Shown: positions 42,623 through 51,286 of the stretch, piece by piece | Numbering within the stretch: the stretch's first letter is position 1 | How the letters are laid out: each line of letters opens with the position of its first letter | Assembly: GCA_048938105.1 (NCBI GenBank) | Contig: JBHLMN010000016.1 | Location: forward strand, 32,001 to 96,000 | DNA from: Promethearchaeota archaeon | GTDB taxonomy: Archaea; Asgardarchaeota; Heimdallarchaeia; Hodarchaeales; Hodarchaeaceae | Length of the DNA: 64,000 bases | Direction: 5' to 3' | Made by a program: the position numbers and the translations under genes | The notes under the pieces: model-generated | The model's database searches: none | What the model was told of the DNA's origin: nothing | What the model saw: the letters and a program-made list of their open reading frames with translations, nothing else

Positions 42623-44092
42623 ATGAATCAATCGTTAAATATAGACTTAAATCTAAATCAAAATGAAGAAATTATGATAGATTCCTATTCATTTCATTGT
42701 TATATAGCTTCGATAATTAAAATACCACACAAAGAAGAATACGTGTATCAGGTACGATATGATCCTTTAACTTATAATCACTTGAAGGATTTCAGTCATT
42801 ATGAAAAGGAGGTTCATTTCTTTCTTAAAGAATTTGTTTTGCACCAAAATGATTTCTGTACATTTGATCAGCTTTACACTTCCTTATCAAAAGCTACTTA
42901 TAAGGAATTACAAATCCCTAAACAATTTCTAATCCCCGTTATGTTCCGTAAGCTCAATCTTGAAAAAATTGGTCCATTATTAATTGAAGATCAGATTGAC
43001 GAAATATATTTAGATTCGAGTAAGAAGAATCTCTATATAGATCATTCCCGGCATGGGAGGTGTGCTACCTCAATACAGCTTTCGAAGGAAGAAATCGAAT
43101 CTTTTGTTCATCGAATTGCACTGGAAAACGATTTTTCTCTAAATCAAAACAATCCAACAATGAAAGCAGATTTTGTATCTAAATTGTTCCATTCCCGGAT
43201 CACAGTAGATATTCCTCCTCTTATTATCGATGATATTCACATTGATATCAGGAAATTTCATTCAAAGATATTGAGAATTTCAGATCTGATTAAGAATGGA
43301 AGTCTTACCCTAAGTCAAGCAATTTTCTTAGTATATTTAATTCAAAATCAGGTTTCGATTTCAATAATTGGGCCTCCAAATTCAGGGAAAACAACATTGC
43401 AAAATGCTTTGATTGAATATATTCCTCCTCATTTTCGACTTCTATCAGTGGAAGATGTTTTAGAAACCGCTGAAATAAGACGTGGAAACACTGTTAGATT
43501 CCGTTTAGGTTATGATCCGCATGAAAGCATGATTTTTTCAAAATCGCTTGAAGTCCAAAAAATACTACATAGAAGTCCAGATTTTATTAATTTAGGGGAG
43601 CTTTCCACAAAAAATCATTTTACTGCTTTTTTGAATGTTCTATCTGTTGGAATCCCATCAATTCAAACAATACATGGAAGAACTCCAGAATTTCTTTTCG
43701 TACGTTTGAGAGACATATATAACATTCCTCTAGAACTCTTAAAAGCTTCATTTCCTCATATTTTCATCGAGTTGAACGTTTCTTGGATCAAAAATAAGAA
43801 AAAACGTACAATTATGCGGATTGCAGAATTAACAAATGAAGGTGAAATTACTAATTTGTCTAACAAAGCAATCGAATCATTTGTCGCCTATCCTAATACT
43901 GAATCAGGAATTTTCACACTTGCTTATCTGATTAAGAACAATCAGACTAATCTCAATGATTTTATTGTTAATATCCAAAAAACAGCCTTATTATTGTCTG
44001 GAAACTCGTTTCATAAAGAAATTAAACAAGAAGCGGTTGATTTCAATCATCGGAATAAGAATGAAAATAAGATTGTAAAAAATAAAAACTAA
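42623..44092 (+). CDS. TadA/VirB11/FlaI-type secretion ATPase
   Basis: IDIRK, Walker A GPPNSGKTT, Asp box VEDVLE, PDFINLGE, His box TIHG. Confidence 0.9.
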   Translation: MNQSLNIDLNLNQNEEIMIDSYSFHCYIASIIKIPHKEEYVYQVRYDPLTYNHLKDFSHYEKEVHFFLKEFVLHQNDFCTFDQLYTSLSKATYKELQIPKQFLIPVMFRKLNLEKIGPLLIEDQIDEIYLDSSKKNLYIDHSRHGRCATSIQLSKEEIESFVHRIALENDFSLNQNNPTMKADFVSKLFHSRITVDIPPLIIDDIHIDIRKFHSKILRISDLIKNGSLTLSQAIFLVYLIQNQVSISIIGPPNSGKTTLQNALIEYIPPHFRLLSVEDVLETAEIRRGNTVRFRLGYDPHESMIFSKSLEVQKILHRSPDFINLGELSTKNHFTAFLNVLSVGIPSIQTIHGRTPEFLFVRLRDIYNIPLELLKASFPHIFIELNVSWIKNKKKRTIMRIAELTNEGEITNLSNKAIESFVAYPNTESGIFTLAYLIKNNQTNLNDFIVNIQKTALLLSGNSFHKEIKQEAVDFNHRNKNENKIVKNKN

Positions 44093-44457: not shown

Positions 44458-44730
44458 GTCAATCACCCCGAGCTCAAACCTCAGGGCTTTTTCGGTGACG
44501 AGAAAGAGTAATTGGTTGATTAGCCACAGAAAAGTTGAAGGAATAGGTAATTATGAAATCAACAGTATCTAAGTTATCAGGAGAGTTCAGGAACGCACCA
44601 AAAGATGCTTCTCTAGTCTCTTGCTCTGCAAATGAGGGGTTAAACAGAGAGGAAACTCTCAGTGCTCCTCATACAGTACTGCCTGATAACCTTGGCGAAG
44701 AGAACCAACTCCGTAATACTACGGAGAGAC
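44458..44730 (+). ncRNA. omegaRNA (HEARO-like) scaffold of IscB
   Basis: GTCAATCACC...GGTTGATTAGCC first stem; GATGCTTCTCTAGTC..GCTCT; TTAAACAG-GAGGAAACTC-CAGTG; GATAACCTTGGCGAAG; terminal hairpin CTCCGTA..TACGGAG. Confidence 0.85.
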
Positions 44731-44735
44731 AGAAC

Positions 44736-45962
44736 ATGAGTGTATCTGTCAATGTCTATGTACTGAGTATGAGAGGGTCACCTCTCATGCCAACCACACC
44801 TCGAAAAGCGCGTCTATTGTTGAAACAAGGAAAAGCATCTGTTGTTCAACGAACACCATTTACAATTCAACTCAAATATGCTACAGGTGAAACTACGCAG
44901 CCCATCACCTTGGGAATTGATGCGGGGTATTCTACCATTGGTTTTTCCGCAATTGCAGCAAAAAAAGAACTTATTGCAGGTGAAGTAGTATTAAGAACAG
45001 ATATCTCAAAAAGATTAGCCCAAAGACGCATGTATCGTAGAAACAGACGTAGTTATCTTTGGTATCGAAAGCCCCGTTTTCTTAACCGTACTCATGCCAA
45101 AAAAGAGGGATGGTTTGCTCCAAGTATTCAACACAAATTCGATTCTCATATTCGATTAGTGAAAAAAATTCAGAAGATTTTATCTATTACAAATATCATT
45201 GTTGAAGTGGCATCATTTGATACTCTAAAGATGCAGAATCCAGAGATAAACGGGATAGAATATCAACAAGGAGAATTACAAGGTTATGAAGTAAGGGAAT
45301 ATCTACTTGTAAAATATGGAAGAAAATGTGTCTATTGTGGAAAATCTGGCATTCCCTTAGAAGTAGAACATATAAAACCGAAATCGAGAGGAGGGTCAAA
45401 TCGTGTTTCAAACTTGGCAATTTCGTGCCAAAAATGCAACCAAAAAAAAGGTGATCAAACTGCTGCTGAATTTGGACATTCTAAAGTGCAAAAACAGGCC
45501 AAGCGACCCTTAAAAGCTCCCACATTCATGAATAATGTTCGTCAAAAAATCGTGGCTAAATTGAACAGTCAATATACTTATGGTTTCATCACAAAGTATA
45601 ATCGAATTAAACTCGGTTTAAACAAGTCTCATATTAATGATGCATATGTCATTGCTGGAGGGAAATTATGTCAACAACGAACTAAACCATTTTATGTTAA
45701 TCAAATCCGACGTAATAATCGTAGTCTACAATTAAATCGGAAAGGATTTAGAGTATCTATCCGAAAGTCTCACTATCCTTTTCAACCCAATGACCTCGTC
45801 AAAGTAAAAACAACCAATTCTCTATATCGAGTTAAAGGAACTCATTGCAAAGGGACACGGATTATGGTACAGTCACTCAATTTAGTTAAGAAAAAGATTA
45901 GTTTAAGTTTCAAGAATATTGAGTTGGTCACCTATGGTAAGGGATTGTCATTTAAATATTAA
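44736..45962 (+). CDS. iscB: RNA-guided endonuclease IscB
   Basis: PLMP, RuvC-I GIDAG, Arg-rich bridge helix, RuvC-II VEVASFD, HNH (EHIKPKSRGGSN...C..CN), RuvC-III SHINDA; all catalytic motifs intact. Confidence 0.96.
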   Translation: MSVSVNVYVLSMRGSPLMPTTPRKARLLLKQGKASVVQRTPFTIQLKYATGETTQPITLGIDAGYSTIGFSAIAAKKELIAGEVVLRTDISKRLAQRRMYRRNRRSYLWYRKPRFLNRTHAKKEGWFAPSIQHKFDSHIRLVKKIQKILSITNIIVEVASFDTLKMQNPEINGIEYQQGELQGYEVREYLLVKYGRKCVYCGKSGIPLEVEHIKPKSRGGSNRVSNLAISCQKCNQKKGDQTAAEFGHSKVQKQAKRPLKAPTFMNNVRQKIVAKLNSQYTYGFITKYNRIKLGLNKSHINDAYVIAGGKLCQQRTKPFYVNQIRRNNRSLQLNRKGFRVSIRKSHYPFQPNDLVKVKTTNSLYRVKGTHCKGTRIMVQSLNLVKKKISLSFKNIELVTYGKGLSFKY

Positions 45963-47085
45963 TTGGTTAATTATGAGTTATACCACCTTTGGCTCTTATA
46001 GAGATCCCATTTCCATTAAGTAATGCCTCTTATTCTACCAATGTAGTCTTAACTTTTGCTTAAAAACCCGAGAAAAACTCCTGGAATGCCCTTTTTTATG
46101 CCCTTATTTTATAGATTTCCCCTCTAGGACTCTCACTGAATTTCCATACGAGAAAAAATGCCTGAACCTTGAATTTCTTATTTAGTGAAAAAGAGTTGCT
46201 TCATTGAGGTCGTCAAATTAGTCCATTGACGACATGAACACATTATAATTGCTTCCTCACTATTCTACTGTAGAAGAGATGTAATCAACCTTATTGGGCA
46301 TAAAAGTATCTCCCTCCTGAAATAATTGTCATTAAGGAGGAATAGTTAAATTCATTAAGGAAGAACCATCTAATACAATCAGGAAGACAAGTTTTTTCTT
46401 CACACAAAGGCTATTGAAAGAAGAAACTCGCCTCCAAGAATTAAGATAGTAGAGATTGACTCTTCCCAAAGAATTCAATCCTCTTTTATCTTTTTTCTCA
46501 GTTTGTGTAAGCTTCCTTAGATAAAATTAAAAAAGAATTCTTACCATTTTTCTTCTAATCTATGATATCTAGAATAGCCCAAACTCTCTTTCTAACATCT
46601 TTGAAATTTAAGAAAATCAAAATGGATAATGATTTCCGCTGTAAAATCATGAAATATATGGCAAGCTATTCTTTTTATCGATACGTTGAAAAAAGGTTTT
46701 ATAGAATAAATAATAACCCTTACATACTCTAAAATAATGAATAAGCATACCTCGCTAGTTTGAATAATTGTCAAAACGATTTAATTACTCTTAGTATCAC
46801 AAACAACGTTAAACAAGCTAGATTAAGTATCATCGCCTCTCTCGGTTGTGTAAAGAAATCAGAACGAGATGGAAGAATCACATTACATCTTATACTATAT
46901 AATATTTGCATAGCAGAAACAACAGGTAGAGAAACATTTTCAAAATAAGAAATCCCTAAGAATGAAATCGTACTAATACGATATGTCACATATTTAAAAA
47001 TTGATATAGTACTAAGCCCCACACAGTTCAGAATAATGAAAACAAACTAATCATATGATATGTAAAGGCATAGGAGGAGAAATAT

Positions 47086-47586
47086 ATGGTATTAACTTAC
47101 GAACCTGAACTATCCAAAATAAATGACCTCTTAAATTATGGAAGGTTGTATAATAACACGTTAATAGCTATTAATCGTATTATACATGGTCTTGAACTGA
47201 ATGAGAGGCATCAAGATTCTTTGAACTCCATGAAAAATCTTTTTGATGAAGTGATAAGAGGAGAAGGACAAAACATCGAAATTAAATTGAATAGAGCCCC
47301 AAATAATGTTTCCAGCCTCAATGCTTACAGAAGAATGACTTTGTTGAGCTTACGTGATATTCTAAGAGATGTTAAAGAAGAAAATGAAGTTAAAGAATAT
47401 CTCATGGGACTTAGAGATACATTAATCAGTTTTATAAGTAATACATTAGATTTAGAAACAGAAGAAAACATAAATTCGCTAATGAAATTTCTAGGAATTT
47501 CATCAGAAACCTGTCACAAGGAAATTGAGAGACTGAGGATCGAGGAGGTTGAATTGAAGCCTTGGGAGACGAGAGAAGAGATTTAG
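47086..47586 (+). CDS. hypothetical alpha-helical protein, first gene of the cargo operon
   Basis: AGGAGGA RBS; overlaps the next ORF. Confidence 0.8.
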   Translation: MVLTYEPELSKINDLLNYGRLYNNTLIAINRIIHGLELNERHQDSLNSMKNLFDEVIRGEGQNIEIKLNRAPNNVSSLNAYRRMTLLSLRDILRDVKEENEVKEYLMGLRDTLISFISNTLDLETEENINSLMKFLGISSETCHKEIERLRIEEVELKPWETREEI

Positions 47587-49169
47587 CTACAATTGAATCT
47601 TGCATTCAACAAATAAATTTCTTTGTGGATGAAATCTATCTACTAGAAAAGGCCTCCTTAATTAATTATCAAAGATTCTATCAGCTTTTAAATAAAATAT
47701 GCAGAATTATCCTTAATCAACTAGAGGACTTGAAAACTGAAAGAGGTGATCTGGAAGAGTTAGAAGAAAATAATCATATTACGAAAGTAAAAAGAACCAT
47801 TATCATTCAAGCAAAAAACCTACTTGAAACTGTTTCACAACTTCAATGGTACCTTAAGCAGCTATCTTTAGGTACAGGGAGAGAAGAAAACATCCCCGTT
47901 GAATTTATTTTTCCTCTAGAGCCTATCATTGAACATTTTATTGAAGAAAATTTGATTTTTCTTATTGCATCCTGGGAACGTAATTATAAGATCGTAGATT
48001 TTTCTAATGTGTTGAGCCGCATTTTTAAGAATGATAAGGTGATTCTAGACGAGATTAATCACTTCAAAGATCATATCATAATTATCAATCTTCCATGTGC
48101 ATGGAAAGAAGCAGCTTTAATGCATCCATTACTTTTTCATGAGATCGGTCATTTATTGATTAATCTTAATCCTCAAGGGTATAAAGAAAATTTCATTATG
48201 TCAATCGATAATAAAAAGATTGAAAGGATTCTAAAAAGAATTCGATCTGATTTTTCCAATAAGAACTCTAAGGTACTGAAAGATCTTCAATATTTCATTA
48301 ATCAAAGTATTTTTCAGGTAGATATCGTAACAACATCATTGAATTGGTATAATGAGATTCTTTGTGATTTTTTTGGCTTTTCATTAATGAATCTTGGATT
48401 TATATTCGCTTTCACATCATTTTTTAGAACATCGGCCAGTTTAACATCGTGTGGACCGACTCATCCCCCAGGATTCTTAAGATTTGGATTACTTTACTAT
48501 AAGTTATCTAAAGATAAAAGGATTCTCGATTTTTTGAAAACTATATCACCTGATGTTTATAATCTTCTTAAAGATTCAGCTACAAGATGGGAATACTATA
48601 AATCAAAATTAACTTATCTTAATCAGGCTTGTGTCGAAGTTTTAGAGAATTATAAAGAACACCTTCTTGACTCAAACTTGCATGAAATGAGAGGTTTGAG
48701 TATTGAGGAATTTATATACAACCATGATAGGTTTATAAAGTATAAAGACAAATTGTTTGAACTTTTACTTAATTTTATACCAATTAACGAAATAATAATA
48801 AGTGAAACTGAATCCTACCAATGTAATCTAGCATTAATTATTAATGTTGGTTGGTTCTTTTATTATAATAAAGAATTTGACTTATTTAAAGAAAAAGCTC
48901 TAGAACATAAAGAAAAACCTGAATCACGTTACTCAGGGTCTTTAGGTCCAGGGATTAGTCAAATTCACAGAGATAAGGAAATTCCAAAGCTTCATGTGGC
49001 TTTTGATATTTCAAACAACGAAAAATTTGAAAATAACTTTTACAAGGAAAGGCCTAGTCCTTTCTCTTTTTTAAATTGCATTATAAACAAATCGATTCAG
49101 CTTTCTTTCATCCAGGAATATCTAAAAGATATTTGGGAGAGAAAACAAGATGTTTCTACCAAGAATTGA
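47562..49169 (+). CDS. HEXXH zincin-like protein (putative metallopeptidase or sensor)
   Basis: LFHEIGH, WYNEILCD third-ligand motif, THPP..LR. Confidence 0.7.
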   Translation: MGDERRDLATIESCIQQINFFVDEIYLLEKASLINYQRFYQLLNKICRIILNQLEDLKTERGDLEELEENNHITKVKRTIIIQAKNLLETVSQLQWYLKQLSLGTGREENIPVEFIFPLEPIIEHFIEENLIFLIASWERNYKIVDFSNVLSRIFKNDKVILDEINHFKDHIIIINLPCAWKEAALMHPLLFHEIGHLLINLNPQGYKENFIMSIDNKKIERILKRIRSDFSNKNSKVLKDLQYFINQSIFQVDIVTTSLNWYNEILCDFFGFSLMNLGFIFAFTSFFRTSASLTSCGPTHPPGFLRFGLLYYKLSKDKRILDFLKTISPDVYNLLKDSATRWEYYKSKLTYLNQACVEVLENYKEHLLDSNLHEMRGLSIEEFIYNHDRFIKYKDKLFELLLNFIPINEIIISETESYQCNLALIINVGWFFYYNKEFDLFKEKALEHKEKPESRYSGSLGPGISQIHRDKEIPKLHVAFDISNNEKFENNFYKERPSPFSFLNCIINKSIQLSFIQEYLKDIWERKQDVSTKN

Positions 49170-49668
49170 AATAATAAATCGTATTTTTAATGAACAAGAT
49201 TTTAATAAACGAATAATAGTAACACCCTTTTTTGACCCTGATGAGCAAATTGGTGATGGTACTCTTGATCTGAGGTTAGGTTTTTCATTTTTGAAAATGT
49301 CTCGTGAATATATTCCTTATGTTAATGTTTTGGATGAGGATGTATACACTAAAATTGATTCTTCTCATAAAAAGATTCTTTATTATCCTCGTTGGACCAC
49401 AAAAGAAATAACTCTTCATCCTGGTGACTTTTTATTAGGTGCTACTCTTGAATACGTTAAACTTCCAGATGATTTAATGGCACTCATTTCAGGACGTTCC
49501 TCGTGGGCTCGATTAGGAATCGTTATTCAGGCAACTGGAGGTGTTATTCATCCCAATTTTAACGGTACTATAACTTTTGAATTAGCTAATGTTAGTTCCA
49601 TGCCTGTTAACCTCTACCCTGGGATGAGAATTGCACAATTAGTATTTTCAAGTTGTTCCAATGATTAA
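49150..49668 (+). CDS. dcd: dCTP deaminase (trimeric dUTPase fold) lacking the C-terminal lid
   Basis: LDLRLG, LHPGDFLLGATLEYVKLP, GRSSWARLG, IHPNFNGTITFELAN, LYPGMRIAQLVF, then stop. Confidence 0.9.
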   Translation: MFLPRIEIINRIFNEQDFNKRIIVTPFFDPDEQIGDGTLDLRLGFSFLKMSREYIPYVNVLDEDVYTKIDSSHKKILYYPRWTTKEITLHPGDFLLGATLEYVKLPDDLMALISGRSSWARLGIVIQATGGVIHPNFNGTITFELANVSSMPVNLYPGMRIAQLVFSSCSND

Positions 49669-49901
49669 TATGGATTATAATGATATAGACAATCTTTATT
49701 CTTGTGGTATGGATGGTTGAAACTCATTTAATAAAAATAAGTATTAATATCGAATAAATCGATTTTGTCATTTTTTTCTGATAAATATTATCTATTTATT
49801 GTGTAGCTAATACTACATAAAATTGCTAATATTGTAAATAACTTTACAAATAACTATATACCCACGATTTGGAAGGGTGAGGCAAATGTGTTTAAAACTA
49901 A

Positions 49902-51242
49902 ATGATAAAGGATGAAACTGTAAATGGATGCAGGAAAGTGAAGAGAAAATTTCTACTTATTTTCCCAGAATGGCCGCCTGCCATTGGAGGGATGCAAACT
50001 CATGCTATTTGTTTATCTAATTATCTTTTTTCTAATGGTCATAAAATACTTGTTGTTACATACAAACCAAATCATGCACAATATTCAAAACAAGAATATT
50101 TACAATCTGATAAACTCTTTAACTTCCCTGTTATAAGAATTTTATCAAGAATCACTTATTATCAAAACCTGAGAATAATTCAAAAGATTTCAAGAAAATT
50201 CAAACCAGATCTGATTTATTCAAGTAATATTTTTTATGGAATTCTTAAAGATTGGACTGGTAAACCCACAGTATGTCGATCAGTCGGAAATGATATCTTA
50301 AGGCCTTGGATTCCTTATCCTTTTAATTTTGGATCAAGATTATTGTACAACAAGGCCATAGAGGAAATTTTAGTAAAAATCTTTTTTAAATATTTAAGAG
50401 AGTTAGACATATTCCCTTTTTTAAGCTCTATTTTTCGTAAAAGACGATTAAATATTACTATACAATCTGCAAGATCAGCAGATACAATTTTACCTAATAG
50501 TCACTTTACAACGAGAATTCTTGTTGGATTTGGTGTGAATTCAGCAATTATAAAACCTATAATTGGGGGGGTTGATGTTAATTTCTTTAGAAGAGAAAAA
50601 TCAATTGATAAAAGGCCATTACGAAAAAAATTAAATTTACCAGAAGATAAAATTTTATTGTTAACTGTTTGTAGATTAGTCCAAAAGAAGCGAGTAGATC
50701 TTTTGATTAGAACTATTAAAACCGCTATCTCTAAAGATAAAAATTGGCATTTAGTAATTATTGGAAATGGTAAACGACGTAAGAAATTAATAAAATTAAC
50801 CCATGACCTTGAATTAACGGAATTTATAACTTTTATAGGCTCAATACCATATTATTCAATACCACAATATTATTGGACTGCAGATTTGTTTATTCTTGCT
50901 AGTAAAATCTTCTATCAATCTAAGACAAAAACTTATGATGTCGAAACGATGGGTAGGGTATTATGTGAAGCCAATGCAGCAGGAGTTCCAGTACTCGCCT
51001 CAAAAAGTGGTGGTATTCCCTCTATTATAACTAATAAGAAAAATGGTTTGCTTTTTAACACAGATGATCAGACTGTTCTTTGTGAGAAAATTACTTACAT
51101 GCTTAACAATAAAAAAATGCTTGAGGATTTTAGTCGAAATGGATTGTATTATGCTGAAGAGAAATTTGATTGGTCTATAGTGTTTCAAAAACATGAAGAA
51201 ATATTTGAAAATCTGTTAAATGGGAAAAGAACTGGTACCTAA
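49902..51242 (+). CDS. GT4 family glycosyltransferase
   Basis: WPPAIGGMQT, VCRLVQKKRVD, ETMGRVLCEANAAGVPV..SGGIP. Confidence 0.92.
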   Translation: MIKDETVNGCRKVKRKFLLIFPEWPPAIGGMQTHAICLSNYLFSNGHKILVVTYKPNHAQYSKQEYLQSDKLFNFPVIRILSRITYYQNLRIIQKISRKFKPDLIYSSNIFYGILKDWTGKPTVCRSVGNDILRPWIPYPFNFGSRLLYNKAIEEILVKIFFKYLRELDIFPFLSSIFRKRRLNITIQSARSADTILPNSHFTTRILVGFGVNSAIIKPIIGGVDVNFFRREKSIDKRPLRKKLNLPEDKILLLTVCRLVQKKRVDLLIRTIKTAISKDKNWHLVIIGNGKRRKKLIKLTHDLELTEFITFIGSIPYYSIPQYYWTADLFILASKIFYQSKTKTYDVETMGRVLCEANAAGVPVLASKSGGIPSIITNKKNGLLFNTDDQTVLCEKITYMLNNKKMLEDFSRNGLYYAEEKFDWSIVFQKHEEIFENLLNGKRTGT

Positions 51243-51286
51243 TGATTATTCAACATATTACTTTCTTTCGGTGAATAAAGATTAGA

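Follow-up and report, generated by a model that had tools for sequence, protein, structure and literature searches.

A three-gene cassette within an IscB-type insert

We analyzed a window of 64,000 nucleotides of the Promethearchaeota archaeon assembly GCA_048938105.1 (contig JBHLMN010000016.1, positions 32,001–96,000 of the forward strand), and all coordinates below are those of this window. Three overlapping genes on the plus strand encode a small helical protein, a 535-aa protein with an HEXXH motif (hereafter the partner) and a dCTP deaminase (Dcd), the ORFs of the last two overlapping by 20 nt. The features of the locus were as follows:

44458–51286 (no strand): mobile insert of about 6.8 kb, an IscB element with cargo, which contains the cassette and interrupts a host membrane-protein gene
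44458–44709 (+): HEARO (omega) RNA, with which the insert begins on the left (Rfam RF02033, 115.7 bits)
44553–45962 (+): IscB-type RRXRR-HNH nuclease ORF (Pfam RRXRR, E 5e-64, plus HNH)
47086–47586 (+): small helical protein of 166 aa, cassette gene 1, with homologues 5' of the partner in many loci
47562–49169 (+): partner of 535 aa, a probable M48-like gluzincin with an inserted lid (176 relatives; AF2 pLDDT 89)
48138–48368 (+): zinc site H193-E194-x-x-H197 with third ligand E265, plus D269 (conservation in 107 sequences)
48771–48821 (+): predicted Dcd-docking surface, residues 404–420 (IPxNE), acting with the last helix, 510–522 (from the complex model; conserved in cassette partners)
48921–49052 (+): transplanted Dcd C-terminus, an insertion of about 44 aa (residues ~454–497), with the lid motif at residues 454–475 (nt 48921–48986)
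49150–49668 (+): tail-less trimeric dCTP deaminase of 172 aa, with S117, R121 and E144 intact
49902–51242 (+): GT4 glycosyltransferase (Pfam PF00534), insert cargo outside the cassette

The flanks of the insert abut directly in five congeners, and the interrupted host gene is a whole frame of 169–230 aa in congeners. The cassette Dcd was present in none of the 20 congeners searched, and the insert ends occur as a single copy in the genome. The cargo of the IscB/HEARO element, about 5.3 kb, consists of the three-gene cassette and the GT4 glycosyltransferase; the latter is absent downstream of the Dcd in a second locus (L001) and is thus not a cassette member. Immediately to the left of the insert, a T2SSE/VirB11-type secretion ATPase (42623–44092) belongs to a conserved host locus that also encodes membrane and surface proteins. 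The host genome encodes a true actin (442 bits), in keeping with an Asgard archaeon, and a separate housekeeping Dcd on another contig (C6). The small helical protein had no family match or other usable match in family and profile searches; it is fused to the peptidase-fold partner in loci L007–L011. Promoter and terminator scans gave a signal no better than chance.

A local misassembly, which the initial annotation had named as something that could overturn its reading, was excluded because a Logan contig from a separate assembly matches the locus at 100% identity over 5812 nt and because L001, from a second sample of another run, is colinear at 67% nucleotide identity. L001 carries the same three genes, including a tail-less Dcd of 177 aa and a lid motif in a 50%-identical partner.

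The deaminase tail and its counterpart in the partner

The Dcd scored 132.6 bits against TIGR02274, above the curated cut-off of 92.8, with a match spanning only positions 13–155 of the 180 in this profile. The initial annotation had described a Dcd with its catalytic core kept and its chain cut short, and both statements were borne out. S117, R121 and E144 are present (these residues were invariant in 48/48 cassette Dcds), and the chain ends 6 aa past QLVF, the last core strand, whereas the tail following this strand measured 34–68 aa in 82 of 82 other Dcd homologues. The only other short-tailed homologue was a close orthologue (P0004) with 11 aa. Also in agreement with the initial annotation, no lid-like text was found 3' of the Dcd stop in any frame, so that a frameshifted tail beyond the stop was rejected. 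The lid that trimeric dCTP deaminases carry at the C-terminus of the same chain is missing from this Dcd and was found in the partner.

The two tail-less Dcds, from the window and from L001, are 77% identical with intact catalytic residues, and two further positions are noteworthy in both. They have a histidine (His134) in place of the motif-III Asp of bifunctional, dUMP-forming Dcd:dut enzymes (D119 in M. tuberculosis). Because of this histidine, the product would probably be dUTP. Moreover, a glycine (G130, window 49537–49551) replaces the otherwise near-invariant Ala of the allosteric loop in only 2 of the 48 cassette Dcds, both tail-less. Given the role of this Ala in base recognition and dTTP control (PMC4827122), the substitution may, by analogy, alter dTTP feedback or base preference in both split Dcds.

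We compared the partner with a lid profile made from 82 homologue tails, the query being excluded. Residues 452–475 scored 21.1 bits, against 6.8 for the best of 5000 shuffles, and this motif was the top match among the 16,181 ORFs of the genome (E 2e-4, the next one at E about 5); a chance motif was rejected on these grounds. Profile–profile comparison of the motif with Dcd tails gave E 7e-6. The motif retains the functional consensus (basic residue, Tyr, GP, S and D), and its basic residue and Tyr correspond in the alignment to the KY pair that binds the triphosphate in the tails of the E. coli and M. tuberculosis enzymes. The initial annotation had thus correctly reported both overlapping ORFs, a loop matching the Dcd tail and its position at partner residues 454–474 (nt 48921–48983), but the moved segment is longer than it had assumed, extending over residues ~454–497. 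The span N428–K510, which contains it, measures 83 aa, versus a median of 39 and a maximum of 48 in 105 other family members.

Over residues 454–490, the partner is identical at 18 of 37 positions, ungapped, to the last 37 residues of the Dcd of locus L012, a cassette of the same class, the match ending at the final residue of that Dcd. The insert scored 23.6 bits on cassette-type tails versus 12.4 on housekeeping tails. Since it matches both the end of the L012 Dcd and cassette tails, we concluded that the complete 3' end of a cassette dcd was relocated. In a tree built without the insert, the L012 partner was sister to two insert-bearing partners (SH-aLRT 89), with long branches. An origin from the housekeeping Dcd of the host was rejected, its tail being unlike the insert; the upstream Tyr of the housekeeping tail is missing from the insert, and many cassette tails also lack this Tyr. 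No duplication remnant was visible in the DNA of the locus.

The lid is under purifying selection, as judged from the comparison of the window and L001 partners: it is identical at 18/22 positions (82%) versus 2/20 and 4/24 (10–17%) in its flanks, and its codons have undergone 8 synonymous and 4 amino-acid-changing changes. A third lid-bearing protein, the 133-aa fragment P0087, likewise gave 18/22 in the lid, and no Dcd was recognized 3' of it. Among about 150 family members, the insert was limited to these two loci and this fragment.

The cassette family, the partner fold and its predicted docking on Dcd

The trio of the window consists of three coupled genes in fixed order with a Dcd of the cassette clade, and it belongs to a small-protein/M48-like-peptidase/Dcd cassette. 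The lid is on the Dcd, and the partner is free of any insertion, in 46/46 other cassettes examined, where the Dcd has a tail of at least 35 aa and either follows the peptidase gene or forms a fusion with it. These loci are spread over Asgard genomes, Methanobacteriaceae and a large number of bacterial phyla. The initial annotation had suggested looking for lid-less Dcds associated with the partner motif, and tail loss and insertion indeed co-occurred exactly (both in 2 loci, neither in 46), a count that is not a statistical test because it includes only two complete loci and one evolutionary event. The tail-less pair nested within the cassette clade with support values of 98/92, so that the split is the derived state. 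Two aspects had been missed by the earlier reading: the lid-in-partner arrangement derives from a cassette that is itself widespread, and it is the cargo of an IscB element.

We recovered no further lid-in-partner loci in JGI metagenome contigs, in viral contigs, in 399 genomes of the same phylum and 82 of the same class, or among the best 80 GTDB Dcd loci; the arrangement is rare within these limited searches, which do not establish its absence elsewhere. Neither the cassette nor a split Dcd was described in the literature searched.

Several loci depart from the common organization. L014 (410–1459, minus strand; G160) contains an ORF of 349 aa that runs, without a change of frame, from the peptidase core into the final third of a Dcd, lid included. 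This chimera may be the type of product needed by a duplication–deletion route, or alternatively a broken copy or a misassembly. The Dcds of two Asgard cassettes (L015 and L018) have long degenerate tails below the lid-profile threshold, with partners devoid of lid. In a Marispirochaeta cassette (L003, 4449–4997), the peptidase gene is cut by insertion sequences and its C-terminal docking part remains before an intact Dcd. The contig of P0005 (SRR13394437) encodes a cassette-like trio of a 210-aa protein, a 508-aa protein and a Dcd, after which come a thymidine kinase gene and two further genes of the Dcd family.

The partner is built of an N-terminal three-helix bundle, a probable M48-like gluzincin domain and a C-terminal subdomain predicted to dock on the Dcd. 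Its AlphaFold2 model had a pLDDT of 89, the lid motif being the sole stretch under 50 (residues 458–467). As in gluzincins, the HEXXH motif is combined with a third-ligand Glu on a later helix. H193, E194, E265, D269, P302 and R307 were invariant in the 107-sequence alignment and H197 was at least 90% conserved. The partner had no Pfam match, and no Foldseek match at E 0.001 or better. The top structural matches of the isolated peptidase domain were ZMPSTE24, Ste24 and BepA (Z 8.1, 7.8 and 6.4), the first with an rmsd of 8.3 over 161 residues. These matches give moderate support to the assignment as M48-like.

The zinc ligands are intact in both insert-bearing partners. Among the 46 cassette partners with a readable zinc site, 11 have lost it; proteolysis is thus not a universal part of the module. 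Since the catalytic residues of the Dcd are never lost, it is the deaminase that appears to be conserved as the output, with peptidase activity being optional. In the Asgard cassettes whose zinc site is dead (L007–L011, L016 and L019–L022), the docking motif and the Dcd remain intact. Two of them, L007 and L016, adjoin rpl16/L10e, and L007 also adjoins a SpoU methylase; the position next to rpl16/L10e suggests domestication at a housekeeping site. A distant Asgard subgroup of HEXXH proteins (L023–L031 and L035; 372–408 aa) is found without Dcd. Within it, the HEXXH gene of L030 converges on a Piwi/Argonaute gene (E 4e-8), and genes of about 410–440 aa are placed in the same way in L027, L028 and L031.

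The partner and the Dcd probably bind each other, as suggested by fusions of the peptidase and Dcd (P0101, P0139, L043, L060, L062, L064 and L088) and by complex modeling. The model of a Dcd trimer with partner residues 385–535 scored 0.64 versus 0.00 for the best control, a mark reached by 58/80 solved and 2/110 mismatched pairs, a calibration set unlike the present case. A pass can also arise when a model resembles Dcd trimers of solved structure. The runs had at least 42% of their contacts in common, with a partner pLDDT of at least 36, and one of the three runs scored 0.00. The confident interface involves partner residues 400–420 and 510–522 and Dcd residues 9–30, 44–45, 100–104, 138 and 158. 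Both sides of the interface are conserved. In cassette partners this applies to I406, P407, N409, E410 and K510, while the Dcd residues at positions 23, 25 and 102 distinguish cassette-type from housekeeping-type enzymes; a docking site common to the family is therefore suggested. The insertion falls between both halves of this predicted surface. The initial annotation had proposed modeling to see whether the motif docks over the active site; the binding was supported, but none of the confident contacts involved the lid, an uncertain outcome that does not count against docking.

Possible functions of the split and comparison with known systems

We consider that, through an intergenic transplant, a complex that already existed probably became a deaminase of two obligate subunits with its lid supplied in trans. 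Before the split, the peptidase-fold protein of the cassette would already have docked on the Dcd via its C-terminal subdomain. The lid and the terminal helix, encoded by the 3' end of dcd, were relocated in frame into a loop of the docking subdomain within one Asgard lineage, and dcd lost its own copy; operon duplication followed by deletions would be the simplest route. The bound partner would now provide the lid that closes over the active site, the Dcd alone would be poorly active, and the turnover of dCTP to dUTP would need the partner. This is the most likely reading because the insert is a real Dcd tail, its presence coincides exactly with tail loss, the lid is under purifying selection and the two proteins probably bind.

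The dependence of the Dcd on its tail is argued from the presence of a tail in every other Dcd examined and, by analogy, from related dUTPases, in which loss of the C-terminal arm lowers efficiency about 1000- to 100,000-fold (PMC5519681, PMC1802613), the motif V of dUTPases being not the same element as the Dcd tail and absent from Dcds (PMC4827122). The initial annotation had proposed a Dcd inactive alone, completed in trans and gated by conformation or proteolysis. Of these proposals, completion in trans is the most likely, given the tail homology, the co-occurrence, the selection, the fusions and the model; proteolysis is not common to the whole module, 11 of 46 partners being zinc-dead.

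Gating would be compatible with completion in trans: the resting partner would withhold the lid and release it only when the peptidase domain or the small protein sets off a cleavage or a change of conformation, so that dCTP is depleted upon infection. We regard this addition as possible but doubtful. It is consistent with the intact zinc ligands of both insert-bearing partners, with the lid motif being the least ordered part of the model and with the M48/U49-type neighbours of the partner, Lit (U49) being a peptidase triggered by infection. The host also has its housekeeping Dcd, and an uncontrolled additional one should be costly. However, the analysis revealed neither a trigger nor a cleavage site nor a second conformation, and 11 of 46 partners do without the zinc site. 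Moreover, the 46 cassettes that keep the lid on the Dcd itself need another control, so that the gate may lie elsewhere. The wider idea of a natural split enzyme used as a switch, an Asgard antiviral module in which a zinc-peptidase regulator delivers the lid of its effector when triggered, is equally tentative. Signalling in the reverse direction, with a Dcd that senses nucleotides and a lid whose closure on bound dNTP pulls on and switches a peptidase effector, seems improbable. A lid tethered at both ends could pass force, and the glycine replacing the allosteric-loop Ala (whose role is described in PMC4827122) is restricted to 2 of 48 cassette Dcds, but the tethers are variable (10–17% identity) and look slack, and invariant deaminase residues (48/48) beside a zinc site lost in 11/46 point to the Dcd as the conserved output.

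Binding of the partner and conservation of the lid would fit equally well an inhibitory cap, in which the motif blocks the active site in an antitoxin-like manner and the released tail-less Dcd is active. Toxin–antitoxin logic is common on mobile elements, yet none of more than 120 other Dcds examined dispenses with its tail, and the motif keeps the functional consensus; we consider this version improbable. There is still less room for a neutral leftover or an assembly error accompanied by a decaying pseudo-enzyme. This reading could draw on the fragmentary state of P0087 and on the deletion-type chimera of the same two genes in L014, perhaps non-functional, but it is largely refuted by the identical independent contig, by the tail-less Dcds that remain 77% identical with intact catalytic residues and by the synonymous excess in the lid. 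Since the second locus, with a partner only 50% identical, keeps the arrangement and 82% of the lid, the insert is neither a misassembly nor a relic.

An antiviral or conflict role is conceivable, considering the mobility of the cassette, its patchiness and its redundancy with the housekeeping Dcd. We treat it as hypothetical because few defence genes occurred in the neighbourhoods sampled: 92 neighbour proteins of cassettes, a sample without a control set, gave few matches to methyltransferases, UvrD/GajB and RT-helicase. PADLOC returned no match for the Dcd, which instead matched dUTPase-fold families in profile searches.

The locus illustrates with unusual clarity how, in nature, a functional part of an enzyme can move into the middle of a neighbouring gene and stay under selection. 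The 46 other loci show the ancestral state, and a sister lineage as well as a candidate intermediate (L014) can also be seen. It also provides genetic evidence for a complex between a peptidase-fold protein and Dcd, with a docking subdomain predicted near the active site, which narrows how the family works, and the split offers a direct test of the function of the Dcd lid with the core, the partner and the peptide. If gated, it would represent a new control of a toxic nucleotide-pool enzyme in archaeal relatives of eukaryotes.

Compared with other copies of the small-protein/HEXXH peptidase/Dcd cassette, the window has the same genes in the same order and the opposite location of the lid, which sits on the Dcd, with no insertion in the partner, in the 46 others. 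The partner shares HEXXH, the downstream Glu and an HPxxxxR motif with M48 gluzincins (ZMPSTE24/Ste24 and BepA) and Lit/U49, which are among its Atlas neighbours; it differs from them by its additional helical bundle, its Dcd-docking subdomain and the lack of a Pfam match, as well as by the loss of the zinc site in some lineages of its family. The defensive dCTP deaminase (Tal et al.) and AvcD of AvcID deplete dCTP against viruses with a zinc-dependent cytidine-deaminase fold; the outcome proposed here would be the same, whereas the Dcd of the window has a dUTPase fold. Housekeeping Dcd and Dcd:dut enzymes (E. coli 1XS1 and M. tuberculosis 2QXX; TIGR02274, PF22769) belong to the same fold family, with the same catalytic Ser/Arg/Glu, and their KY...S-x-I tail aligns with the moved motif. 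In contrast to them, the window Dcd reads SSW where they have SSL, carries Gly and His at the positions of the allosteric-loop Ala and the motif-III Asp, respectively, and has its tail encoded by a different gene; it also resides in a mobile cassette, the host having a separate housekeeping copy. A parallel to the proposed lid in trans is found in trimeric dUTPases with a swapped arm, in which a C-terminal segment from another chain closes the active site (PMC5519681, PMC1802613); the donor of the arm is there an identical subunit, whereas at our locus it would be an internal loop of an unrelated protein.
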